Source of the DNA: Azolla caroliniana
Lineage: Eukaryota; Plantae; Polypodiophyta
Assembly (NCBI GenBank): GCA_043228905.1
Contig: JBHGNT010000011.1
Coordinates: forward strand, 8,618,001 to 8,682,000
Length of the DNA: 64,000 nt
Direction: 5' to 3'
A program made the position numbers and the translations under genes. Numbering within the stretch: position 1 is the first letter of the stretch; the number at the start of each line of letters is the position of its first letter. Below, in pieces: positions 3,401 to 53,646 of this stretch. The notes below the pieces were generated by a model, which saw only the letters and a list, made by a program, of their open reading frames with translations, was not told the DNA's origin and searched no databases.

Positions 3401-4588
3401 TGAAGATAGGAAGCATCCTGAATATGTTTGTAAGCTGAAAAAGGTTTTTTATCAACTGAAACAAGCACCGAGAGCATGGCATAGGGAACTTTTAGAATCT
3501 CTGAAAAAAATTGCTTTCAAAATGTCAAAGGTTGATCCATCATTATATGTAAAGAAGATAAATGATTGCATTGTTGTGATCTTGATATATGTTGATGATC
3601 TAATCATTGGAGGTGATTCTATGGAAGAGATAAGTAAGTTGAAGAAAAATCTGGAAATGCAAATTCAGATGAAGGATTTGGGAGAGCTGAGATACTTTCT
3701 TGGCACTGAGATGATAAGATCTAAGAGTGGTATATATATGTTGCAAAAAAGTATGCAACAACTATGTTGAAGAAGTATGGTATGCTTGGATGCAAACCTA
3801 TTTGTATACCACTAGATAAGAACTGCAAATTGGGGGCTAATTTGGGAGCCAAAATAGAAGATGTAAACATGTATAGGTCTATGGTGGGCAGCCTCATATA
3901 TTTGACCATAACAAGACCTAATTTGAATTATGATGTTGGATTAGTCAGCCAGTTTATGCAACAGCCAACAAAGCCACATTTAGACTGCATAAGAAGAATT
4001 CTGAGGTATGTAAAAGCTACTCAGAACTAGGGACTGTTTTACAGGGTTGACCTAGACATAAAGTTGGAAGGATATACAGATGATGATTGGTCTGGAAGCC
4101 AAACTGACAGAAGATCCACAAGTGGATATATGTTTACATTGGGAAGTGCAGCTATTTCATGGAGTAGCAAGAAACAAGCCACTGTTGCATTGTCAAGTAC
4201 TGAAACTGAGTATAGAGGAGCTGCAATATCTACCTGTGAAGAGGTATGGATCAGAAGATTGCTTTATGATTTGGGAGAATATATAGATGGTGCTGTCACA
4301 ATTTGGTGTGACAATATGAGCAACATTCAATTGGCAAAAAACCCAGTGCTCCATGCAAGAACAAAGCACATTGAAGTGCATTATCACTTTGTTAGAGAAA
4401 AAGTGATTGATGGAGAAGTGGATCTATTGTATGTAAGTACAAATCAACAAGTGGCTGATATTCTTACGAAGAGATTGAGCATGGAAAAACATACACAGTT
4501 TAGAGACATGATGGGAGTTATAACCATCGGCATGGTAGTTGAAAAGCATGAAGAAAAGAATATTGAAGATGATCCCAAGAAAGGATAA
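419..4588 (+). pseudogene. pol: Copia gag-pol polyprotein with frameshifts, stops and an integrase-core deletion
   Basis: Zn knuckle CWYCGKPGHTQAEC, PR (N/D)SGASNHM, INT WHKRIGH..C..C and HTDVWGP, RT KARLVAKG and YVDDL, RH SWSSKKQ and RTKHIEV. Confidence 0.95.
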
Positions 4589-6414: not shown

Positions 6415-7209
6415 TGTTGTGTTGTTATGCGTGTGTGTAGAAGGGCGGGACCATGGGGGTCTTGGACTAGGGAGAAAGGGGTGCTGAGAAACCGACTCCG
6501 GACGCGTTCCGGAGGCAACCGAACACGAGAGAGAGAGAGAGACAGAGGAGAGGGAGAGCGTGCGCGCGACACTGACTCTTATGCACATGAAGCAAGGGGT
6601 TGTGCTTCCGACACCACCAAATACACCGATATGCACAAACAGACGCAAATATGTATATTACAAGGGAAATAATACAACCCCGGCTTCGAGCTGGATCAAG
6701 GTAGGTTACAGCCGCAGTCGGCTGCCAAGCCGCCGGTCGGGGAGCTCACGGGCTGTCGCGCCGAGCGGGGTCTTGCACAAGAGACCGAGCGGAAGCAAAC
6801 CTACAAAGGGGAAAGATACAACCACAGCCACGGGCCAGCTACGCACAGAAGAAGAGAAGTTAACCTAACAGCTTTGCAGCCTTAACTCCTGCCCGACTTC
6901 TCGAGAAGGAGAAGAAAAAAAAAGAAGAAAAGAAAGAATGTAGCTAACCCTAGAAAAGAAAGCACAAAATGGTATACCCTTACGACTCAAAATGGGCAAC
7001 CCTTTCACAAAGGGCGCTCCCCTCCCTTTATAGAATAAGGAGAGGAATGCATAACAATGTGGGATAAATCCCGACTTACATGGGATTCTCTGTCCCGACT
7101 TAACTCCTATTTATCCACACGTTTTTACAAGGGTAAGTGCACATGGTGCACTCTGCCGATTCTTCCGATATTCCCCGGTTTCTCACTATGGCCCGGAATC
7201 TTGACGACA
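6415..7209 (-). repeat. 3' LTR of J
   Basis: Direct repeat of 9673-10500, TG...GACA. Confidence 0.92.
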
Positions 7210-9672: not shown

Positions 9673-9786
9673 TGTCGCGTTGTTACGCGTGTGCGTGTAG
9701 AAGGGCGGGACCACGGGGGTCTCGAACTACGGAGAAAGGGGTGCCGAGAAACCGACTCCAGACGCGTTTCGGAGGCAACCGAACGC

Positions 9787-9832
<46 letters not shown>

Positions 9833-10500
9833 AAGGAGAGGGAGAGCGTGCGCGCGACACCGACTCTTATGCACAGGAAGCAAGGGGTTGTGCTTCCGAC
9901 ACCACCAAATACACTGATATGCACAAATAGACGCGAATATGTATATTACAAGGGAAATAATACAACCCTGGTTTTGAGTCGGATCAAGGTAGGTTACAGC
10001 CGCAGTCGGCTGCCAAGCCGCTGGTCGGGGAGCTCACGGGCTGTCACGCTAAGCGGGGTCTTGCATAGGAGACCGAGCAGAAGCAAACGTACAAAGGGGA
10101 AAGATACAACCACGGCCACGAGCCGGCTACGCACAGAAGAAGAGAAGTTAACCTAACAGCTTTGCCGCCTTAGCTCCTGCCCAACTTCTCGAGAAGGAGA
10201 AGAAAAAAGAAGAAGAAGAAAAGAAAGAATGTAGCTAACCCTAGAAAAGAAAGCACAAAATGGTATACCCTTACGACTCAAAATGGGCAACCCTTTCACA
10301 AAGGGCGCTCTCCTCCCTTTATAGAACAAGGAGAGGGATGCGTAACAATGTGGGATAAATCCCGACTTACATGGGATTCTCTATCCCGACTTAACTCCTA
10401 TTTATCCACACGTTTTTACAAGGGTAAGTGCACATGGTGCACTCTGTCGATTCTTCTGATATTCCCCGGTTTCTCACTATGGCCCGGAATCTTCATGACA
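9673..10500 (-). repeat. 5' LTR of J
   Basis: TGTCGCG...CATGACA; contains an expanded (GA)n. Confidence 0.92.
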
Positions 10501-13037: not shown

Positions 13038-14174
13038 TGTCGTGGCGTGGCTCGCCTAGAAGCATAGCGTTGCGTAGACAAAAGATATCATGAAAGTGAG
13101 GAAGGAATCACTAGGATTATGGACGGAAGAGACGAAAGAGTAGAGATAGAGTAAATAGAGATGAACAAGATATGACAAAATAGGATTTTTAAGGAATATA
13201 AGACAAGACAAGATAAGATATAAAATAATATATGAGAAAGTGTATGAAATTTATAATCATTTTCATGAAAGAGTTACAAAGTGATTGTGCACGTCGTTGA
13301 ACCTCCGAACTTTGTCTTGCAAGGTAATCGCTCTTCTCTTTCTTGATCGTAGACCACTACAATCTTCACTTCAATATTTTGATGAAGATAAGGCTCGAAC
13401 CGCCTCCCTCTTGTTGAGAGTTGACCACCATGACCGCCAAGCTAGAGCTCCACGTTTATGTTAAACTTCTTCCCTTCTCTCTCGATTTTTATGGTATCTC
13501 TTATGTAATACATAATTTGATTGATATCTCATACATATCTCCCTTTGATCTTCTCTTTCACCATTTAAATAGGTGCCCCCATGCATATGATGCATTGGAG
13601 GGTACAAGTCATGCATGTAGTGCATGAAATGCATGTGATGCATGATTGCCATTTGGCGTTCATGCATTACATGTGATGCATGATAAACATCTCGCTCATT
13701 TGAGCTTTTATGTATGAAACAATATATGCAATAACAATAAACATGAAAATATAATCTTAAAGAGAAAGGGCCTAGCCTAATGGTAGGTGTGTTGACTTTG
13801 GTGTATGAGGTAGTGGGTTTGAGTCTCAAAATACTATTGAATACAACATACAACTTTATTTTTATATCATGAAGCAAATCCTTTATGTAATATAAAGTAT
13901 ATATAAAGTATGCTTTATTTTTATGTATATTACTAGTATAGAATAAATGGTAATATTTGAGAGTCATAGGGTGGGGTTATTGGTTCAAGTCCTCTCTTGT
14001 TCGTGTAATATAATATATTTATCTATATATATATTATTTTTCTTTACATATATATAATATTATCATATGTGTTGTTAATATTATCTTTATATATAAAACA
14101 TGATCAAATGTTATTTTAGTTACGTATTTATCTTATTGTAGACTTTTAATGTGAAGCTTTCGTACTTCACGACA
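13038..14174 (-). repeat. 3' LTR of C
   Basis: Near-identical to 24984-26073 apart from small indels. Confidence 0.93.
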
Positions 14175-14214
14175 TCCACCCCCTCTAGACCTGCACATTC
14201 TCCGGCATGTGCCT

Positions 14215-17265: not shown

Positions 17266-18064
17266 TGACCTATACGCAACGCTCGGCCACAACCAAGCTT
17301 AGAATCATACACAGAAAACGGGAAATAGATGCTCGACACAGAAAAGAGAAGAGTACACAGGATGTTTACGTGGAAAACCCAAACTAAGGGAAAAGCCACG
17401 GTAGCCCATAGGCTGCAAACTATCACTATGTTAGAATGTACAACAGTGAGTTCACGGAGGCAACGACCTCGTGCTCACGATCTTCGCCACAAGCGGTGGT
17501 TACAACTGAGGCAATGACCTCTTCCTCTCTCTCACTCTCTCTATACACAGTTACACGCTCTGATCTCGCACAGACAAGAATAACGACAACGACTACTAAA
17601 AGTTTGCCCTAAGTCATATTTATACTAATATGACTTTTCGGCTATTTACAAATATGGCCATGATGGACTCTCAGAATCATATTTACGAATATGTCTCTTC
17701 ATCCGGTTCTCACCGGGTCTGCACCATCCGGCTCTCCGTAGCCGGGTACTCCTCATCCGGTCTTCACCGGGTCTGTACCATCCGGCTCTCCGTAGCCGGG
17801 TACTCCTCATCCGGTCTTCACTGGGTCTGTACCATCCGGCTTTCCGTAGCCGAGTACTCCTCATTTGGTCTTCACCGGGTCTGTACCATCCGGCTCTCCG
17901 TAGCCGGGTACTCCTCATCCGGTCTTCATCGGGTCTGTACCATCCGGCTCTCCGTAGTCGGGTACTCGTCATCTGGTTTCGGCCTCGGCCTATCGGCCTT
18001 GGCCGAGTTTCTTCATCGGCACTGTTCTTCTCCCTTCCCATCTGGAGGGATCTGTCTCCCAACA
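17266..18064 (-). repeat. 3' LTR of D
   Basis: 17270-17585 matches 22171-22485; ends ...CCCAACA next to the PPT. Confidence 0.88.
17699..17975. repeat. 54-bp CCGG-rich tandem repeat, about 5 copies, in the LTR of D
   Basis: Unit TCATCCGGTCTTCACCGGGTCTGTACCATCCGGCTCTCCGTAGCCGGGTACTCC. Confidence 0.92.
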
Positions 18065-22121: not shown

Positions 22122-22485
22122 TTTCTGTGTCGTTTCGCTCTGATACCAGTTGACAGGAGCTTCATGCTCCCTATACGCAACACTCGGCCACAACCGAGCT
22201 TAGAATCATACACAGAAAACGGGAAATAGATGCTCGACACAGAAAAGAGAAGAGTACATAGGATGTTTACGTGGAAAACCCAAACTAAGGGAAAAACCAC
22301 GGCAGCCCACAGGCTGCAAACTATCACTTTGTTAGAATGTACAACAGTGAGTTCACGGAGGCAACGACCTCGTGCTCACGATCTTCGCCATAGGCGGCGG
22401 TTACAACTGAGGCAACGACCTCTTCCTCTCTCTCACTCTCTCTGTACACAGTTACACGCTCTGATCTCGCACAGACAAGAGTAAC

Positions 22486-24983: not shown

Positions 24984-26073
24984 TGTCGTGGCGTGGCTCG
25001 CCTAGAAGCATAACGTTGCGTAGACAAAAGATATCATGAAAGTGAGGAAGGAATCACAAGGATTATGGACGGAAGAGACGAAAGAGTAGAGATAGAGTAA
25101 ATAGAGATGAACAAGATATGACAAAATAGGATTTTTAAGGAATATAAGATAAGACAAGATAAGATATAAAATAATATATGAGAAAGTGTATGAAATTTAT
25201 AATCATTTTCATGAAAGAGTTACAAAGTGATTGTGCACGTCGTTGAACCTCCGAACTTTGTCTTGCAAGGTAATCGCTCTTCTCTTTCTTGATCGTAGAC
25301 CACTACAATCTTCACTTCAATATTTTGATGAAAATAAGGCTCGAACCGCCTCCCTCTTGTTGAGAGTTGACCACCACGACCGCCAAGCTAGAGCTCCACT
25401 TTTATGTTAAACTTCTTCCCTTTTCTCTCTATTTTTATGGTATCTCTTATGTAATACATAATTTGATTGATATCTCATACATATCACCCTTTGATCTTCT
25501 CTTTCACCATTTAAATAGGTGCCCCCATGCATATGATGCATTGGAGGGTACAAGTCATGCATGTAGTGCATGAAATGCATATGATGCATGATAAACATCT
25601 CGCTCATTTGAGCTTTTATGTATGAAACAATATATGCAATAACAATAAACATGAAAATATAATCTTAAAGAGAAAGGGCCTAGCCTAATGGTAGGTGTGT
25701 TGACTTTGGTGTATGAGGTTGTGGGTTCGAGTCTCAAAATACTATTGAATACAGCATACAACTTCATTTTTATATCATGAAGCAAATCCTTTATGTAATA
25801 TAAAGTATGCTTTATTTTTATGTATATTACTAGTATAGAATAAATGGTAAGATTTGAGAGTCATAGGGTGGGGTTATTGGTCCAAATCCTCTCTTGTTCG
25901 TGTAATATAATATATTTATCTAGACATATATATTATTTTTCTTTACATATATATAATATTATCATAGGTGTTGTTAATATTATCTTTATATATAAAACAT
26001 GATCAAATGTTATTTTAGTTACGTATTTATCTTATTGTAGACTTTTAATGTGAAGCTTTCGTACTTCACGACA
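24984..26073 (-). repeat. 5' LTR of C
   Basis: TGTCGTG...CACGACA. Confidence 0.93.
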
Positions 26074-26703
26074 TCGTGCTCAGGAATCTTTTGATCAGAA
26101 GCAACTCCCCATCGTTGAACTTGTTCAGGGCCAAAGTGCTCCGCTTGTTTGGCAACATTCGAGCCGACTCGAAGAAGTCCACGCCCACCTCTTCATCTTC
26201 CGACACCATGTTGTCCTCGTTCTCGAACCTTGCTCTTGAGAGCGTATCGGCCATGGTGTTGTCCTCTTTGGAGATGTGTCGTATCTCCGGAATCAGGGAC
26301 TTGATGTACGCGATCCACCTCGGCATCACCAGGTTTGGAGTTGTGCATATAGAAACCATACCGAGGATCGGTAGGTAGTCTGTCTCGATTATCACTTCCG
26401 TCCCAATCAAGTAGTCTTTATTAGCCTTGACCGCCAAAACGATACCCCAATGTTTGCGTTTAACCTGAGTGTACCCTCATTGCCACTCGCTCAGCACCTT
26501 CGCACCTAACCGGATGGGGAAGCATATGTCGTCCTCGTCGTCTTGATTAACCACCCACCCGATTCTGGTCGGACTCGTATCTAACGTTATGTAATCTGGA
26601 GTTTCCGCTTTGTATACAGCTCTCTGGAGAGTTGGTGCTGCCGTCAGCCTCTCCTTCAGTTTTTGAACCACCTCTATGTGCTCTTCGCACCATTCAAACT
26701 TTC
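26074..26703 (-). pseudogene. pol: B RNase H
   Basis: DTSPTRIGW, ETDYLPILG, MADTLSR. Confidence 0.88.
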
Positions 26704-39433: not shown

Positions 39434-39860
39434 TGTCATGATATGGTAAGACTCGAACCCATAACCTTATGTTATATGGGTTCGAGCTCTTGACCATTAC
39501 ATTATCTATTGTAATACGTAGGTTATTATTTTCATTTAAGTTTTACTATAGAAAATTATTGTATATTCTAGATTTCTTTGGAACATTCTAGAAGCTTCAG
39601 GACTACTCCTGAGAACACTATAAAAAGAGGCACAAGGCATTATTTCGAACCAAATTGGTTCAACGCCAGTCTTAAGCCTGATAGCTATTTGTACTTACTC
39701 TTCACATAATATATCATCTGTTATCATCATCCTCTCTCTCTCTCTCTCTCGCCTTCGCTATCTCTCTCTCGTGAGTCTTACGTAGTTCGTCCTCTTAGTA
39801 CTAATAGTACTTTCCTTCTCTAGTACTAATTATCTCTCTGTTTTAGTACTATTCGTGACA
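39434..39860 (+). repeat. 5' LTR of G
   Basis: TGTCATGA...CGTGACA; TATAAAAA at 39619. Confidence 0.92.
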
Positions 39861-42900: not shown

Positions 42901-44637
42901 AAATTGACGGCAAGCTCGGTGGGCCCAATTCCTCATGCGTTTTGACTTCAAAATCACATATCGGCTGGGGAAGCAGCAAGGAAAAGCAGATGCACTATCG
43001 TGACATTCATATCTTGCACCTCATCTGGGTGATCCAACATTTGATAATCAAAACCAGGTAATCTTGGGACCAACACGTTTGCACACAACGCAGATTTTTC
43101 AAACTCCACTGGATTCCCAGATTATCGATGCCATACGTGCCAACTTGAAGATAGATAGTTTTGCTAAGGCCATTCTAGCGCAAATTGATGCCTCTCGAGC
43201 ATCCTGTTCCCAGTCTCAACAACCAAGTATGGACTACCGACAATTCAAATATCATGATGGTTTATTATTCTTTAAAAAGCTCGTGTATGTTCTTGATTGC
43301 TCCTGTCGCCTTCAAATCGTCCAAAATTGTCACGACACCCATACAACTGGACATTTCGGTAGTACTAAGACGTTGGATCAGTTCGACGATCCTTTTGGTG
43401 ACCCCATATGCGACGTTTTGTCGACGACTATGTTCAGATCTCTGATGCTTGTTGCTAAGCAAAGATGCCACGACATCATCCATATGGCTTGTTGGAATCC
43501 TTACCAATTCCAAGTAAGCCGTGGTAGTCCATTTGTCTTGATTTTATCACAAATCTTCTAGTTTCAAAGGGTTTCAATGCTATCTTAATCGTCGTTGATC
43601 GATATACTAAGATGACACATTTTGTGCCTTGTACTAAGGCCATCACTAGTGAGGAAACTGCAACCCTTGTCATGCGTGAGGTATTTCGGCATGATGACCT
43701 CCTAGACAATATCATCAGTGACCGAGGACCTCAATTCCTCTCCAAATTTTGGATGCATCTCTTCAAGATGCTCAAGGTCTCTTGCAACCTCTCCTCCGGC
43801 TACCATCCCCAAACTAATGGCCAAGCGGAACGAATGAATCAAACGTTAGAACAATATCTTCGGTGTTTTCTGAGTTATCAACAGGACGATTGGGCTCATA
43901 TTCTCCACTTTACAAAGTTTGCGTATAACAACGTTATTCACTCCTTGACTCGGGTCTCGCCATTTTATGCTTATATCGGTTCTCATCGTCACTGGTCTAT
44001 GATCGACACTCCGGAGCTACCTACCAATCCTCGTGCCGAGGATCATCTGGAGATGCTAAGCAAGATTCATACGGATCTATCTACTCATCTTCGTCATGCT
44101 CAACACACTCAGAAGACTTATGCAGATCATCATCGGCTTCCCTCCTCTTTTGCCATTGGAGATCGAGTATGTCTCTTATGTCGTCACATCAAGACAACTC
44201 AACCGTGTGACAAATTGGATTATCGACGACTCGGTCCTTTCCGTATTAACAACAAGGTTAATGATGTCACGTTCCGCCTTGATCTTCCTCCGCACCTTCA
44301 GATACATCCGGTCTTCCATAGTTCTCTTCTCGAACCTTATCAGGCCAACACTATTCCAGATCGTGTTACACCACTGCCACCCCTGCTTGAGTTGGACACC
44401 GGCCCAGAGTATGAAGTTGCTGCCGTCCTCGACTCCAAGTTTGTTCGCAACAAACTTTATTATTTGGTCAATTGGCTCGGCTATTGTCCGAGTGAATGTA
44501 CTTGGGAACTTGTCGAGCATGTCACCAATGCTCAGGATCTTCTTGCTAATTTCCAACAAAAGTATCCGGACAAACCCGGTCCACAATCAGCGCCGACTCA
44601 TGACACTCGTCGTCTTAAGGGGGGGATAGTGTCATGA
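39931..44637 (+). pseudogene. pol: G gag-pol with C-terminal chromodomain
   Basis: [23 protein letters not shown] and YLDDLL, RH EADASD, INT YHPQTNGQAER, GPF module, chromodomain EYEVAAVLDS..YYLVNWLGY..TWE at about 44407-44570. Confidence 0.94.
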
Positions 44638-45578
44638 TATGGAAAGACTTGAACCCATAACCTTATGTTATATAGGTCGAGCTCTTGACCATTACATTAT
44701 CTATTGTAATACAAACATGTTCCCATTCAGAAGTGGAAGGATCGCGCATTCCACTTTTAGATTCTCTTTGTAGTCACACAATTTTAGCTTGTTGTGAAAT
44801 CGAACATGCACCAGTATCACATGATCAACCAAAGATGGTGAATTTATTGATTTATTAATCCGATGCATCTCTATACCTAGAGAACATGCTATTTATGGGA
44901 GAAAATATAAATGTATGAGATTTATTTTTGCAATGTTTACAAATTTAGGGTTGGGGTTTACTACGCATTCATTTGATACAAATTAATTATTTGAGGAAAG
45001 CATTAACAAACAAGGATTCCATTTTCGTGAGATGTAAAGTGTAGAGGTTTACAATGGTTAAACTTTCCAAGAGAGGTGTATATGCTATTTGAGAAATTGA
45101 TATTTACATATTATTGAATACAATACATCGCAATTAATCCTTAGTAAAGATCATTAGGATATAATACCAAATGTATATGTTCATGACAACACATGAAATT
45201 TAGAAGTCGAAAGCATACTCGTAACTATTAGTTTACATGAAATTAGACATAAAAGAATATACCCAAAACATATATGACAATTATTAAGGCATAGGCCGTG
45301 CTAAATTTTTGGGTGCCAAAATAGAGACAACACTCCAGTAGTAACGTTGAAGCATGTATTAAAATTTTCATTTGATTGTCTACACATAAACACTAAATCA
45401 AGAAGTTAAACACATATATACAAATGGAGTACTAATAATCCATACAAAACACACATTGATAGCCCTCCATACATCTAGTCCAGACAACAATCAACCATAG
45501 AAACATGATTGTTGTTCTATAATCCCCTTCAATAAAGCAAATACTCCCCAATATCTACAAATGCCTCCTTCATTCCTA

Positions 45579-46436
45579 CTATAAGTTTTGGACGTGCAGC
45601 TTATGTGGTTCTCTGATCTCCAAAGGATGGCGTTCTGTATTCTCATCCAGAGGGGGGTGATGAATATGGGTTATCGGAAGGTTAAAAACTTGCCCCTTCT
45701 GCACAAGCTTTCTATGGATGATGTTCCTTCTTATTTGATTTTGTTTCGATGACAACACACCAGACACAAGCTCTACTCCTGGTGTAGATCGAGTCTCATC
45801 ATCTTCTATTGAACTCGATGACTCAGAATCTGACATTCTTGTCACCTTCTTTTCTTGAGGCCTAGACTGCACAACATATTTCTTTATTGGTGCTTTAACA
45901 TGCGATAAAGAGGCTGCCTTCAGGCCTTGAATGTATGGCCTCAATGTTGTTATCAGGTTGGTACTTGTCTCAATAGCATTCCGAAAGGATTCTGGCCCGC
46001 ATAAATCCTTCAACAAGTAGTCTTCAGAGACGATCATCTTACGGACTCCTTTTGTACAGTTGACTAACACAATCAAATTAGTTGAGTCCGTGTCTTCATA
46101 ATCAAGCCAATTTTTTTTGTCATAGCTAAATGGCCAATCTTGGGCAAGCATCCCACGTCTAGCCAGTCTGGAAACTAAGAGTACTAACTTCTTTTTCAAG
46201 TCGACATATTGCAATGCCCACTCGTGTCCAGTTAAGTCTCTGTCCAGTTGGTCTTCACCTCCTCCAGCCATGACAAATGTCTTCTAACTAACTTCGTCAG
46301 ACGGCTGCCTCACGACTTCATCCTCAAACACAAGTTTCTTTCCCTTTTGCGGATACGTGACAATAGGGATCTTTGTTGTCTCTGGAGGAGAGCTTTGATA
46401 CTTAATCCGAATTCTTTTGAGTGGCATCTCCTCCAT
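45579..46436 (-). pseudogene. Second ORF of H, unknown protein, divergent from the transposase
   Basis: 230-aa ORF extends in frame to an ATG at 46436 through one TAG; a possible splice acceptor (TTATTTCATGTAG on -) lies at about 46450. Confidence 0.55.
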
Positions 46437-47158
46437 AGGATCAGTCGACCTACATGAAATAATAGAACAATGAACCTAAACCTACATTCTCTCAAATGAT
46501 AATGTATTCTAAGATGGTAAGGTTTTCTACATTTTAAAACACATATGAAGCAGACTGGAAAATGAGAATTCAAAAAATAGTTTGGCCTCATTAAGCTCTT
46601 GCCTAACAACTTGAAGGGTGTAGTAATAAGGTCAAAAACCTAGTAAGAGGCACTAGAAAGGGAGTTCAGATAACGGAATAGTGAAACCTAAACCTATATC
46701 CTCCTAACTGGCAATGGTAGTAAGGTAGTAAGGTGGTATGGTAATGTTTGGGCCTCACTTCAGTCTTACAGTATGCACATTCCTCTTAAATGAAGGTGGT
46801 ATGGTGTGCCAAATTAACAATCCAGTAATGTTTTGGCCTCATTTTAGTGTTACAATAAGAACATTCCTAGTACGTGGTGTAAAGGACTTGTAGGATGGGT
46901 GAAACAGGGTTAGAAACCTAGGATAAATGTATATCTAACGTCTTTGAGTTCTCTAAACCCTCAAATTACTAGAATTTTGACATCCCCATCAGTGTCTAGG
47001 TCTCAGATTGCAGGTCAAATTCTACTGTATTTTGACCTTAATTTAGAATTTCTAAAGATGTTTTTACTTCTTATTTTTAGCCTAATGTTTGCTTTCGTGT
47101 TTCTGATGGTGTAATGTACATTAATAGTGTGGTCTAACTACCCTAGTGGCTCTATGAC

Positions 47159-47293
47159 CCTCAACTCAATACGGCGTATCGAGTTCTGGCATTAGGAGCC
47201 TCAACTCGATACGGCGTATCGAGTTCTGGCGTTAGGAGCCTCGACTCCATACGGAGTATCGAGTTTTGGCGTTAGGAGCCTCCACTCCATACT
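47159..47293. repeat. 40-bp tandem repeat (about 3.3 copies) with internal hairpin
   Basis: Unit CCTCAACTCGATACGGCGTATCGAGTTCTGGCGTTAGGAG, period 40. Confidence 0.9.
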
Positions 47294-49030
47294 ACGTACA
47301 GAGACAACGACAGAGAAGGAGCTAAATAAGAAATTACATGCCCAAGCATTAGAGCGAAAAAGAGCTATGCACCATAGGGAAAAGTCGATAAACAATCCAG
47401 CTAACTACATGTGTTTAATGATAGATGGAATGGACCAAAAGAAGACGTGTCTACCTTATCTTAAACGTCTTCCTAAAGGTGTCAACGATGATTGTCTCGT
47501 CCAGATGCACTTGGTGGGTTGTTTAGCGTATAATGGAAGTGTTAAGCCTCATGTCTTCGTTACCTACCCAAATGTCCACAATGACCCTAATTTAACAATC
47601 ATTATGATTCAAAAAGTTTTGATGTCTTGGGGGCAGTCTTTGCTGCGAGTTTTATATATTCAACTTGACAATACTGCTCGTGAAAACAAAAATTCTACAG
47701 TCTTTGGTTATCTAAGTATGCTGGTGAACCAAGGAATTTTTAGGAAAGTGAAAGTTACTTTCTATTGGTTGGTCACACACATGACCATATCGATTAGATG
47801 TTCAGTAACTTCTCTCGGCAGTTATCATGATATGATGCTTTCACGTTACCTAAGTCATTCGACATCATTCATGATGCATATACACCATGCCTAATTGTGG
47901 AACACTTGAAGGAAATATATGATTTCAAGAGATACGTCTTTAAATGGTGGTGAGCGAAATGCTAAAGTGTTAGTGCCATTAAATAATATAAGTTTCAACC
48001 ACGTATTCTTAATAATAATAAATTATCATAGTGGCTATACATTATTATATGCAAAGTAGTATTCATCCTCCCCTCAATGGGAGCCTGAAGGCGGGTGTCA
48101 GTTTCTACTTCATATGCCTTCTACTTTTGTTTATGGTGCAAGACAAATGCCGATTGAGACTAAAAAGGTGGTCACCAATGTACCAACTGATAATCAAAAG
48201 GATGTTTGGATGCAAGCACTACAAGACAAACGCAAGCACATTGACAATGCGAAGAAGTATGTTGGGGAACAAGACACGTCATGGTGGGATGTGTTCTTTG
48301 CAGATCAAGAACAAATTGTTGACAATTGTGTCCTTGGTATTTGGACCATGCAAATCCCCTTCACATGGAATATACAACAGTGTCGTAATTCTCAGACTTC
48401 TCCTCTTGCACCTAATGCGATTAATGATAGCTTGCTCCATCCACCACAAAGGGACATATATGTTGGACCCAAGCTTATGAAAATAGCGGAAATGAGGTGG
48501 CAAGGAAACTTGCAAGAATTGAAGGTGGGTATGTTAATTGCGACACCTGCTGATGATAAGGAGCTGGGACATCAATTTTGGATTGGTAAGTTTTAGATGT
48601 GGTGATGCATGAGAACCAAAGCCAAATCCAGTCTATAAAGGTGTATTGGTGCAACACTAGAAGCAAAAATGCCTTTACCGGCAAGTATGCATTAGAGATG
48701 ATGGAATGTCCACGGTCAAGGGGCAATAGAAAGAGGAAAAGAAATATTCGTAGCACTTCATGCCTAGACATTGGTGACGTAGATATTATTGTTTACGACT
48801 TCACACTAACAAAAGTTGGACGTCTGAGGAAGTCTACAATAGATATCATCAAGGAGAAATTACCTATTCTACAAGGGGTCTCAAGTCGAAGGCAAACAAG
48901 ATCGTCAAAACATAACATGGAATGTCAACATCTAGTTTTAGATGAAGATAATGCCTTAATAGGTACATCTGAAGATGACGAGGAACAATCTGCATTGTAT
49001 ATTAGTTATAGTAGTGACTCTAGATCATGA
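47292..49030 (+). pseudogene. DDE transposase of H (Sola1/DUF7869-like), frameshifted, N-terminally truncated
   Basis: Motifs IDGMDQKKT, LYIQLDNTARENKN and, after a frameshift, LLVGHTHDHID. Confidence 0.75.
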
Positions 49031-50217
49031 TACGAGTAACACCGGGTCATTTGAAACAGGTAATATGTCGCATTCTCTTTTTCATATCTTAGTGAGATGT
49101 TAAAAAATGCCTTATTTAAGCAGAATTTCAACAAGGCACGACGCATGTGTATGTGGTTTATGAAAACATAGCGAAAAAAAGAACTAACTAATATCAAGTC
49201 AACCAAAATCATCCGATGTATATTCTATCTACCATGTTTTTGTCCAAATCTTAGACAGGGGTGTATTTGTCAACACAAGTATAATAGTAACACGGGTCCT
49301 TGTGCATATTCTAAAAAGCATGCCCCATTGAATAAGTGACTTCTTCTAATTATGTGTGTATATTTAAATATAATACATCTTAAAGCAAATTGTGAACCTT
49401 GCAATTAAGAGATACTACTATGTCAAGAGAATATTTCCATTGACACGTGATACATGACACTGTCAATGTATAAATAAACTAGTCTACAATAACATTCCAA
49501 TCATACGAGTAAATGATAGAGTATAAACTTATCTCCGATATACCCCAAATGATAAAGGATAGTTTAGATAACATGTACACATACAAGTATACTTAATTTC
49601 TAAGTTCAATGATTGTTACACGAAAATTATAAGTAAGCTCAACTTATATATTACGTCAAAATTTAACAATTCATATTGTTCAAAATTTACAATAAGCCAT
49701 AACCATTCAATCGAATAATAAGTCTGGTAAAGCCGTCTACTCAGGATTAGCTCTTTCATCAGGATTGTCCTCATTGGCTTCGTCAGTACGCTAAGTTGAA
49801 TTGTTAGTATGTTCAGACTCTGAAACGTCTTCTAATTCAACAAGTTGCCCTGCGTCTTCATCTATAGTTCCACAAGTTTTCTAAAAGTCATCTAGAACAT
49901 CTAAGTTTTATTGATATGCTTTGCCCCAACTTCTTGGTCTTGATCAGGACAACCCCAGATACCTTGATTCCTCATTTTGATGACATTAACTTGCTCAAGG
50001 TCCTTCTCTAATGTAATAGAGTTCCTGATAATCTTTAAGGCGTATGTTTTAGTAGTACATGACAGTAGAATGAAATTGCACAGGTAACATCAAACTGAAG
50101 AATAGAATATAACGTTAATCTAAATTGATGTAAGTTTTATATTATATACCTGTGTCAGAAAACTAATCTAAAACCCATTGAAAATTTGAAACAATAAAAT
50201 TTGAAAAAATAAAAAAT

Positions 50218-52090
50218 CTTGGATTTTTAATTGGAATCCAATGCAATGCACTAGATTTCAGTTGAAAATCCAAGTTTTTTTTTTTTGTAATTTTTAAAAA
50301 ATTTTCCATTAAAAAATAAAAAATGGATTTTCAGCTAAAATACTATGCCCTACATTATATTTTAGTATATATAGCTAGAATCTATTGCAATGCGTTGGAT
50401 TAGAGTCGAAAATCCATTTTTCTTTTTTCTTTTTCTAATGTTATTTATTTATTTATTTTCCATATAAAAAAATAATAAACGGCTTTTCAATTGAAATCCG
50501 ATACACTACATCAGATCGTAATCTATACAGCTAGACATTGATGCATTGCATCAGATTTTAGCTGGCAATCCTTTTTCTTTTCAATTGTTTTTCATTTTTT
50601 CAAAAAATAAATACAAATATATTAAAAAAGTGGATTTCCAACTGAAATCTAATGCACTACATCGAATTTCAATTCAAAATCCAAATTTCTTTTAGGTTTT
50701 TTATAAAACAATGAGATAATAAAAAAATATTCCATTTTCAACAAAATCTGAACCATTGAGTCGGATTTCAATTGCAAATTAATGTTTTATGAAAAAACAT
50801 AAGAAAAATATTGGACTTTCAACGAAAATCCGATGCACTGCATCGGATTTCTATTGAAACTCAGTGATTTTGAATGGAAATCTTGTTGAAAATGATCTGT
50901 TTTCAACGGGAATCCAATGCACTGCATCGGATTCCCGTTGAAATCACATCATTTTAAATGGAGAAAATCACAATTTGTTTATTTTTAACACTTTTTTAGA
51001 GAAAAATATAAACAAATAAGAAAATTTGTAAACAAACAAGAAAAAGTGGACTCTCAATGGAAATCCGATGCAGTGCATCGGATTTCCGTTGAAAATCCAT
51101 TTTTTTCAATTCCTATATATTTATTTATGATAAAAACAAAAACAATTCAAAACAAATACAAAAACAAATTCAAAATATCTGAAAAATTGGAAACAAATAA
51201 GAAAAAATGGATTTTCAATAGAAATCCGAGTAGTGCATCGGATTTCTATTGAAAACCCATTTTTTGCAATTTTTATTTATTTATTAATGGGAAAAGATGA
51301 AAAAAATTTGAAAAATACAAAAAAATATTTACAAATATGAAAATTTGGTAACAAATAGCAAAAAGTGGACTTTCAATAGAAATCCGATGCAATGCATCGG
51401 ATTTCCTTTGAAAATTCATTTTTTCAATTTCTATATAGTTATTTATGAGAAAATAGACAAACAAAATACCAAAAAAATTCTAAAAACTATGAAAATTTGG
51501 AAAAAAATAAGAAAAAGTGGATTTTCTACGGAAATCCGATGCATGTTTATTTATTTTTTATAGAAAAATTTCAAAAAATTTCAAAAAATTTCAAAAAAAA
51601 AAAGCAAATTTGGAAAAAAATATGTAAAAGTGGACTTTCAACCAAAATCCGATGCAGTGCATCGGATTTCCGTTGAAAATCCATTTTTTCAATTTTTATT
51701 TATTTTTTTATGGGAAAAATAAAAACAAATTGAAAAACAATAAAAAATAAGAAAATTTTCAAAAAAATAAGAGAAATTAGATTTTCAATTGAATCCGATG
51801 CACGGAATTGGATTTCCATTGAAATCTAATTTGTCAATTTTTATTTATTTATTTACGAGTAAAATAAAAAATGTTTATTTATTTATTTATGGGAAAATGT
51901 TTTATTTTTTCAATTTGTATTTATTTATGTATTTTCAGGAAATCCATGCAATGTATCATATTTTAGTCTATGTAGCTAGAATTCAATGCAATGCATTAAA
52001 ATGCAAGAGTATTTTTTTAATGGAAATTTTTTTTAAAAAATCCAAGACTTACAGGAATCTGATGCATTATATCCAATTCTAGATGTATAG
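50218..52090. repeat. Array of about 15 imperfect ~53-bp palindromes with A/T-rich spacers
   Basis: Consensus TGGATTTTCAACGGAAATCCGATGCA(C/G)TGCATCGGATTTCCGTTGAAAATCCA; best copies at 50812, 50900, 51046, 51207, 51365, 51630. Confidence 0.9.
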
Positions 52091-53646
52091 AGTAAAATTC
52101 GACATGTTGCGTCAAATCTAGATGGAATGAATCGGATTTCTGTACGACATCAAAGGCTTACTATGAGAATCTAAGACAAATGGAAAACATCTTTAAGACA
52201 TTTTTTAGATTCTAATGATTTTGGTAGAAAGCTTCTCTCACATAATCTAATCTTGTAAATGGAAAGTACATAATGAAATATCATAACCAAAAAGTCAGGA
52301 GGAAAGATGCATCAAGCACATCTACTCTTACATTGGATAATGTTTATATATTAGTGTATGACTTATCTTTGACCAAAACAAGTTATCTGTGACAGACCAC
52401 AATGAAGATACTAAAAGAGGATCTGGAATGTGGCTTCAGACACAACACAAAGATAAACAAGAAGCATGACTCATAAACTCGATGAGGTTGGATTGCAATT
52501 GGATCAACACAATGCATTAGTTGCCATTGATGATGAGGATGAGACCTCATAAACTCGTTCTAGTTCATCTAATGGGTATGAAGATGATGACATAAACTTG
52601 AAAAATGATTGTCCTGATACGTTAACTATAAATATTGTATTGCACATCAAGATTTGGATTCAGAATTTCTATAAATATTGGGGTTACTCATTTTGGACAT
52701 TCATTTGTAAGTTTGGCATGTCCATTATTTAGGCATTTTTTTGAACACCTAAATTTCCGTCATTTTTAAAATTCCTTTACGCATGCGGCACCCCTTTTTG
52801 TGAATCACCCTAATTTGTGTCATTTTTTGATGGACAGTTCTCAAAATGCGACATATTACCTGTTTCAAATGTCCCGGTGTTGAGTGATTTTTGTAAATGT
52901 TACACTCATCAATGTAATTTTGGTATCTATTGTAAGAGAGTGTTGTTTGTAATACTTGAAAGATGTAAAAGTTATGTTTAGAAATATTATTGCTTTGTAC
53001 AAACATTGTCTATTATAAAATACATTACTTCTTGACTTGTCACTGATAGTGAACATTGTACCATTTGGATTATATCTTAATTTTAGCGTTTTTTCAAGCT
53101 TAGGAAATGATGCATTTTTTAGGTTTTCCAACGGTATTTGGAGAACATGTGATACTGGTATCATTATGTTTTGTGAATAGAGTACCTAAACCCCAAAATT
53201 AGCAGGAATATTCCTTATCCTTCCATTTTTGCGTGATCCTTCCACTTCTGAACGCGAATGTGTTTACGTAGGATATTATTTTCATTTAAGTTTTACTATA
53301 GAAATTGGTTCAACGCCAGTCTTAAGCCTCATAGCTATTTGTACTTACTCTTCACCTAATATATCATCTGTTATCATCATCCTCTCTCTCTCTCTCTCTC
53401 TCTCTCGCCTTCGCTATATCTCTCTCGTGAGTCTTACGCAGTTCGTACTCTTAGTACTAATAGTACTTCCCTTCTCTAGTACTAATTCTCTCTCTATTTT
53501 AATACTATTCCTGACACCGCGTAGCGCATTCTTCTGTCTGTCTGGTGATGGATCTAGTTAGTGTTCGATCTTATCGCATAGGTTCTCTGATACGTCGGCG
53601 GCTAGACATCCATTCCTTGCTTGCTCGGTTGCGAGGATTCGCAGAT

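Follow-up and report, generated by a model that had tools for sequence, protein, structure and literature searches.

Nested, internally deleted Sola1 transposons in Azolla caroliniana, with a predicted ParB-like/amino-methyltransferase gene and a palindrome array in their family

Here, I show that an 8.5-kb transposon stretch in a 64,000-nt piece of the fern Azolla caroliniana (contig JBHGNT010000011.1 of assembly GCA_043228905.1; hereafter the window, whose positions serve as coordinates) consists of two nested, internally deleted copies of the Sola1 transposon family, which belong to different subfamilies and carry one palindrome array each. In intact relatives the transposase is accompanied by a second, divergent gene, predicted to encode a ParB-like region fused to a DNA amino-methyltransferase, and I regard it as about an even chance that this fusion binds the array and writes N6-methyladenine (6mA) or N4-methylcytosine (4mC) on the promoter region of its own element. 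A kind of element described in algae in 2025 gains with this family a member in land plants, a kingdom-level lineage new to it.

Relatives of the window copies were gathered as 79 loci (L-numbers), namely 62 ERZ contigs and 17 more distant JGI contigs, and as related database proteins (P-numbers; P0001 is an intact 917-aa transposase relative). The ERZ contigs are collapsed assemblies of similar-looking data sets, and counts made over them do not rest on independent observations. Contigs from four sequencing runs were compared with window positions 44300-50100 only; because contigs were used, run depth gives no copy number.

The inner element (49038-52881, 3.8 kb) has 37-bp terminal inverted repeats (TIRs), 97% identical, and is bounded by an exact target site duplication (TSD), GAGT. 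Its site is empty in all six outer-clade contigs that span it (L001-L005 and L065, at identities of at least 85%), where the base at 49037 is joined directly to that at 52882. The inner-type TIR stands at both ends of the complete element L032, and in a contig of run X2 position 49038 adjoins the gypsy element at another site, which is consistent with an independent inner-type insertion. An earlier note on this DNA had described the 8.5 kb as a single two-gene element with two arrays. That such an 8.5-kb unit moves as one is improbable: giant transposons of Ectocarpus have indeed been reported with fixed nested insertions that move together with the outer element (PMC12477816), but the inner TIRs, the exact duplication, the empty site in the close relatives and the X2 junction all speak against it here, and in the outer copy neither gene is complete. 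The two hairpin arrays of that note do exist, one per nested copy and not two in one element. In its deleted form the inner copy retains only the last methyltransferase exon with the end of the preceding one, a large array (4 exact units, and 18 within 7 mismatches, the loose ones counted without a chance control) and the tail of the transposase. Elsewhere, at L030:3990-4080, another family member lies within a transposase of the family, with its TIR at 4040 and a flank that shares 99% identity with the L020 transposase, either a second nest of Sola in Sola or an assembly chimera. Within the inner copy, positions 49346-49708 are matched by deeply covered, near-identical contigs, which differ at 1 of 173-223 bases; this hints that the deleted inner form is a young, non-autonomous family of high copy number.

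The outer element interrupts the 3' long terminal repeat (LTR; 44630-53516 with the insertion) of a chromodomain Ty3/gypsy retroelement, whose integrase, SH3 and chromodomain are found upstream and which has a 5-bp TSD of its own, CCGCG. The flanks of the element match consecutive parts of the LTR, the empty site TAATACGTAGG reads uninterrupted in the 5' LTR (39434-39860), and in other LTR copies the empty-site sequence follows past 44712 (contigs from 4/4 runs). The outer inverted repeat is 86% identical over 36 bp (44713-44748 versus 53230-53265), in agreement with the TIRs of about 35 bp that the earlier note had seen interrupting the LTR. Taken alone, the outer junction is compatible with a duplication of 2, 3 or 4 bp; because 25 of 25 tabulated element ends in related contigs finish in -TGTT (5'-AACA) and are followed by a variable base, the outer element is 44714-53264 and its TSD measures 4 bp. 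A 2-bp AC or 3-bp TAC duplication was ruled out by these ends and by the 4-bp TSD of the inner copy. The TIRs are 35-37 bp long and begin 5'-AACA. The 4-bp pair TACA/TACG had been proposed already, with CpG decay as the source of the mismatch, and decay of the left copy from TACG to TACA is plausible from the spectrum of changes, the outer copy showing transitions relative to L004 at 12 of 40 CpGs and at 29 of 613 other C/G positions. That both window copies are non-autonomous and decayed through 5-methylcytosine (5mC) after insertion is the best explanation. The outer transposase, which is frameshifted, has lost about 335 residues from its N-terminus, and at the point where the second open reading frame (ORF2) stops, 2.55 kb of L003 are replaced by 121 bp (45461-45581) that have no match to L003.

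TSDs read from both flanks come from the two window insertions only (GAGT/GAGT and TACA/TACG), L032, L040 and L019 having both ends in collapsed contigs with flanks that do not match, hence without a TSD. Sola1 elements prefer AT-rich (AWWT-like) targets. The 25 element flanks are 74% AT versus 60% in the background, 4 of them read AWWT, and neither window TSD does; for Sola2-type elements an AT-rich, AWWT-like preference is stated in PMC3627910.

On its sequence features the family is placed in the Sola1 group of the Sola superfamily, which narrows down the Sola-like DDE transposase of the earlier note. The transposase matches Pfam DUF7869 (E 2.4e-23), possesses the DDE core motifs and is, in the window, 89% identical to the intact 917-aa protein; its named relatives come only from Ceratopteris richardii (65%) and Adiantum nelumboides (50%). 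The published Sola1 profile consensus (fdlqkvlslP and ilysDncagqNknsfv; supplement of PMC5751038) agrees with the window counterparts IDGMDQKKTCLP and LYIQLDNTARENKNSTV, two stretches compared by eye without a hidden Markov model score: QKKTCLP in the window corresponds to Sola1 QKxxxLP, which follows the first Asp, and DNTARENKNS to DNxxxQNKNS, which holds the second. DDD motifs, a 4-bp TSD and TIRs, three features of the Sola1 group, are present. Sola2 was considered and rejected, its motifs DFAENY, SDG..QYKN and ATSHGKxxCDG differing, on comparison by eye, in all three cases (supplementary alignment of PMC3627910).

Some further observations concern the transposase. Its C-terminus includes a conserved beta-rich segment (48480-48900) that has no Pfam match and that I presume to resemble Tudor/BAH-like chromatin readers. 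An extra C-terminal segment (residues 781-902) lies 3' of the intact gene at L021:6759-7223. In L059:1-13342, two distant Sola1 transposase copies stand tail to head in a 3.9-kb inverted duplication of 99.97% identity, possibly an assembly artefact or a fold-back. Distant Sola1 transposases with 33-46% identity (L046, L047, L058, L068 and L072) contain, in the N-terminal coding part, long tandem repeats with units of 39 or 87 bp, and they come without the ParB-methylase gene.

The divergent cargo frame ORF2 reported by the earlier note is real, yet its identity had been missed: it is predicted to be the first part of exon 1 in a gene with five exons and a product of about 980 aa, which joins a ParB-like region to a beta-class N6-adenine/N4-cytosine DNA methyltransferase. 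ORF2 contains no Pfam domain; of its 35 relatives, the longer ones run on, from the exact window stop, into a conserved region, which in a structure comparison within the ESM Atlas comes near ParB_N clusters (template modelling score 0.58-0.62 in the rows at or above the naming bar). Downstream of exon 1, L003 (near-complete, outer type) and L032 (complete, inner type) have further reading frames in one common layout, and a splice test at six loci yielded, at four of them, a single predicted open frame of 915-986 aa with four GT-AG introns, of phases 2, 0, 2 and 1 each time. Both domains also occur in a single chain in the independent database proteins P0099, P0104, P0211 and P0219. Pfam N6_N4_Mtase is matched at E 1.3e-10 by L003 and 7.6e-18 by P0099, and the model of P0099 resembles CcrM (Z 23.9, root-mean-square deviation 2.6 Å over 216 residues), then M.BceJIV, MboIIA, M.RsrI, rotifer N4CMT and M.PvuII, 4mC writers included. 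As in beta-class enzymes, DIPY precedes DLFSG, by about 160 residues in the spliced models, and it is invariant in 10/10 aligned rows. For exon 1, 6 of the top 11 fold matches are KorB/ParB/Spo0J/SopB or ParB-N structures.

Pfam gives no ParB match on the ParB-like region, DUF6551 alone appearing at E 0.02-0.09. No ORF2 relative with a length of 691-2000 aa was found, which is weak evidence because the gene is spliced, and the exon-3 profile has no match among PDB sequences. Among pattern matches for relatives of the ParB region, 0 of 266 in viral contigs and 0 of 56 in prokaryote genomes were confirmed. In the ESM Atlas, the ParB-like region of P0042 (residues 235-388) scores near fungal DUF3723 and near unnamed clusters from cnidarians and molluscs, which suggests a wider eukaryotic ParB-like family.

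The second gene and the array are standing parts of the family, as the earlier note had surmised. Linkage was counted in ERZ contigs whose transposase match starts in the first 130 residues, shorter or N-terminally cut ones being excluded. Exon 1 lies upstream of the transposase in divergent orientation in 13/13 of those that have 2.5 kb or more of sequence upstream (13/14 at 2 kb, 14/17 at 1.5 kb), and the gene is found between mapped element ends in L003, L032, L019 and L040; L003, L032 and L023 carry intact genes. Comparisons between subfamilies find synonymous sites at or near saturation, a nonsynonymous divergence (dN) of 0.03-0.46 and, where computable, a ratio of this to the synonymous divergence (dN/dS) of 0-0.12; judged by these substitution patterns, the ParB-methyltransferase gene is under strong purifying selection. 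Trees of 12 loci recover the same three groups for the ParB region, with weak support, and for the transposase.

Both arrays, of 40-bp and 160-bp period, repeat versions of a single palindrome, CGAT-N7-ATCG. The 62 ERZ contigs contain 144 copies of it, versus 0-4 for any alternative spacing between 0 and 13. Without exception these copies lie on the upstream side of the transposase match, with none downstream, and the palindrome is present in 27 of the 33 ERZ contigs that have at least 600 bp upstream. The window holds 5 copies versus 0.66 expected, all of them within the element. The half-sites differ by clade (YTCGATAC, GTCGATGC or TCCGATGC; L021 is mixed), and the spacing is fixed while array periods vary from 40 to 160 bp. 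The units fold into strong hairpins (z -6 to -8), an energy that is no evidence of function because any palindrome folds. A fixed spacing with a free spacer and a variable period looks like the operator of a dimeric protein; the palindrome is a candidate for this role, short of proof.

A mechanism can be proposed from these parts. A dimer of the fusion protein would recognise each CGAT-N7-ATCG via a ParB-type helical domain, in the manner of ParB and KorB on parS and operator sites, and the fused enzyme would methylate nearby DNA; as the first residue of the catalytic motif is Asp, 6mA has a small edge over 4mC. Either this mark or the protein bound to the array would then keep the divergent shared promoter active, or tune it against host 5mC silencing, and the transposase would cut at the 5'-AACA TIRs, leaving 4-bp duplications. 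A more ambitious version, which I hold to be possible though short of an even chance, sees a fern radiation of old, still intact Sola1 elements with a read-write circuit, composed of a probably CTP (cytidine triphosphate)-independent reader derived from ParB, a clade-specific operator array and a fused methylase whose 6mA or 4mC shields the bidirectional promoter from host 5mC. If true, a land-plant nucleus would possess a site-specific system of DNA methylation other than 5mC, in which reader and operator diverge together.

Several points weigh against the proposal. The canonical motif (D/N/S)PP(Y/F/W) is replaced by DIPY, in which the first Pro has become Ile and Asp, the second Pro and Tyr are kept, and remoter relatives have DAPY, DVPY, DFPY or DIPH instead. 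The methyltransferase fold search was made with the relative P0099, whose identity to the fern exons is 36-46%, and not with the fern protein; the exon-1 model is poor (predicted local distance difference test 54, best Z only 5.7), and L019 and L040, 2 of the 6 loci, failed the automatic splice join. The arginine of the ParB GxxR motif has no counterpart in 16/16 motif matches (GGSHS, GGGHT and similar), in agreement with the alignment, and a CTP-driven clamp is doubtful for that reason; the sequence suggests instead that the ParB-like part may bind without CTP-driven sliding. Of four distant Sola1 contigs that extend 1.5 kb or more upstream, none has the gene, so that Sola1 elements can exist without it. 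Moreover, ERZ contigs, being collapsed assemblies, are non-independent observations, and three clades are too few to show co-evolution of half-site and protein.

One rival view is that the protein binds the array as a regulator of transcription or chromatin, its methyltransferase domain being catalytically dead or a mere module for binding DNA or S-adenosylmethionine (SAM). The non-canonical DIPY motif and the variation of its second and fourth residues among relatives, as well as a report that the methyltransferase domains borne by DIRS1 transposons are likely inactive (PMC4738411), agree with it; nevertheless the Asp, Pro and Tyr of the motif and the SAM motif DLFSGTG are kept across subfamilies whose synonymous sites are saturated, and the P0099 model retains the beta-class fold in full, and I consider a dead enzyme unlikely, if deserving of attention. 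Also rather unlikely is that the arrays are binding sites of the transposase, or cruciforms used in transposition, with the methyltransferase acting elsewhere, for instance genome-wide or on the TIRs. The half-site variants do track transposase clades as well as ParB clades, and the units are strong hairpins, but the arrays are internal, kilobases away from both TIRs and between the two gene starts, with none near the right end; likewise, the upstream regions of four distant loci without the gene hold no exact palindrome in three cases and a single copy in the fourth.

Finally, the gene might be passive cargo captured in the way of Pack-type elements, and the arrays by-products of replication slippage. 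Non-autonomous copies, including both in the window, lose most of the gene, and distant Sola1 loci do without it; against this stand the strong purifying selection, the conserved intron phases, the recovery of the same clades in both trees and a palindrome spacing that is fixed across arrays of 40 to 160 bp period, by which the cargo explanation is already largely refuted and retains very little probability. The reading of a fusion protein that binds and methylates the promoter region of its own element can be put to direct trial, as to binding, specificity and base identity, because there are intact genes, a candidate target with three natural variants, many copies, and a group with a laboratory model (Ceratopteris richardii).

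The nearest known system is Sola1-1_Ec32 of the brown alga Ectocarpus, where a gene for a ParB-like and predicted N4mC/N6mA methyltransferase protein lies on the opposite strand and self-binding and self-modification were proposed by the authors (PMC12477816). The two have in common a Sola1 element with a ParB-like/amino-methyltransferase gene opposite to the transposase and within the TIRs (1104 aa there, about 980 aa here), a likeness of gene layout; unlike that single family of 21.5 kb, the present elements form a land-plant, likely fern, radiation and measure 7.6-8.6 kb. The main text of that paper does not contain the string 'palindrom'. The suggestion of the earlier note that the family may be undescribed therefore stands for land plants alone, in the literature searched, the layout having been published for the alga. 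In the red alga Bostrychia, the EnSpm-type Plavaka elements with PAG2/PAG3 have a ParB-domain accessory protein beside tandem inverted-repeat arrays, proposed as its binding sites, and they also encode a putative N6-adenine methylase (bioRxiv 10.1101/2025.02.11.637652). The neighbourhood of ParB-domain protein and inverted-repeat array, with a methylase on the element, is shared; unlike here, the transposase is of another superfamily, the fusion partner of ParB is a 2-oxoglutarate (2OG) oxygenase, and a gene of its own encodes the methylase, fused to SET.

Sola elements are characterised by 4-bp TSDs, short TIRs and lengths of 2-9 kb (PMC10741241). The present family conforms in these respects and in the DDD core motifs QKxxxLP and DNxxx[QE]NKNS, and departs from known Sola1 in the first-motif variant DGMDQ, in the 5'-AACA ends and in the second gene with its array. 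Bacterial-type beta-class amino-methyltransferases in eukaryotes also include Marchantia DN4MT1 (bioRxiv 10.1101/2021.02.12.428880) and rotifer N4CMT (PMC8885841), which, unlike the DIPY-bearing, ParB-fused, transposon-borne and predicted enzyme discussed here, are encoded by host genes, carry (T)SPPY motifs and have been shown to be active in 4mC formation. The same two-domain combination, ParB with N6_N4 methyltransferase, is frequent in phages and prophages (bioRxiv 10.1101/2025.10.10.680097); the best phage matches, however, reach about 26% identity over the methyltransferase third only, and the fern genes differ in the missing GxxR arginine and in four spliceosomal introns. Sola repeats have been counted in Azolla and Ceratopteris, their structure not being described in the parts of the sources at hand, and the available part of Iyer et al. 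2016 has no description of this element. The literature searched holds no land-plant Sola with a ParB-methyltransferase gene; Repbase, Dfam, Bao et al. 2009, Iyer et al. 2011 and bioRxiv supplements, outside that search, may hold examples. A literature search for 'DUF7869' found no paper.

Whether 6mA and 4mC are meaningful in plant nuclei, and which enzymes write them, is contested, and self-modification by a transposon ParB-methylase is an algal proposal of 2025 that is still hypothetical. For annotation, it follows that fern 'Sola' repeats can be two-gene elements. The features of the window are collected in Table 1.

Table 1. Coordinates of the host LTRs and of the outer and inner Sola1 copies in the window
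Feature	Positions	Strand	Remarks
5' LTR of host Ty3/gypsy retroelement	39434..39860	+	empty target site, TACG once
3' LTR, left part, interrupted	44630..44709	+	95% to 5' LTR
Outer left TSD	44710..44713	+	TACA, plausibly CpG-decayed TACG
Outer left TIR	44714..44748	+	begins 5'-AACA
Conserved non-coding stretch, 3' of deleted methyltransferase exons	44749..45460		85% to L003
ORF2, predicted 5' part of ParB-like/amino-methyltransferase exon 1	45582..46469	-	ends where ParB core starts; rest deleted
Outer palindrome array	47147..47298		40-bp period, unit TCGATAC-N3-GTATCGA, deletion-truncated
Sola1/DUF7869 transposase remnant	47299..49030	+	residues ~336-917 of P0001; frameshifts and stops
Inner left TSD	49034..49037	+	GAGT
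Inner left TIR	49038..49074	+	37 bp, 5'-AACA
Inner methyltransferase remnant (predicted)	49807..50180	-	exon 4 end (decayed SAM-binding motif), intron 4, exon 5; 74% to L032 958-1226
Inner palindrome array	50235..52138		unit TCCGATGCA-N-TGCATCGGA
Inner transposase C-terminal fragment	52249..52600	+	P0013/P0016/P0038 subfamily
Inner right TIR	52845..52881	-	pairs with left TIR
Inner right TSD	52882..52885	+	GAGT
Outer right TIR	53230..53264	-	inverted repeat with left TIR
Outer right TSD	53265..53268	+	TACG
3' LTR, remainder	53269..53516	+	match to 5' LTR

Elsewhere the window is a dense nest of transposable elements, with a 54-bp tandem array at 17695-17977 and further LTR pairs and nested retroelements at 13038-14176 and 24984-26075, at 6415-7209 and 9673-10500, and at 17269-17584 and 22170-22485.

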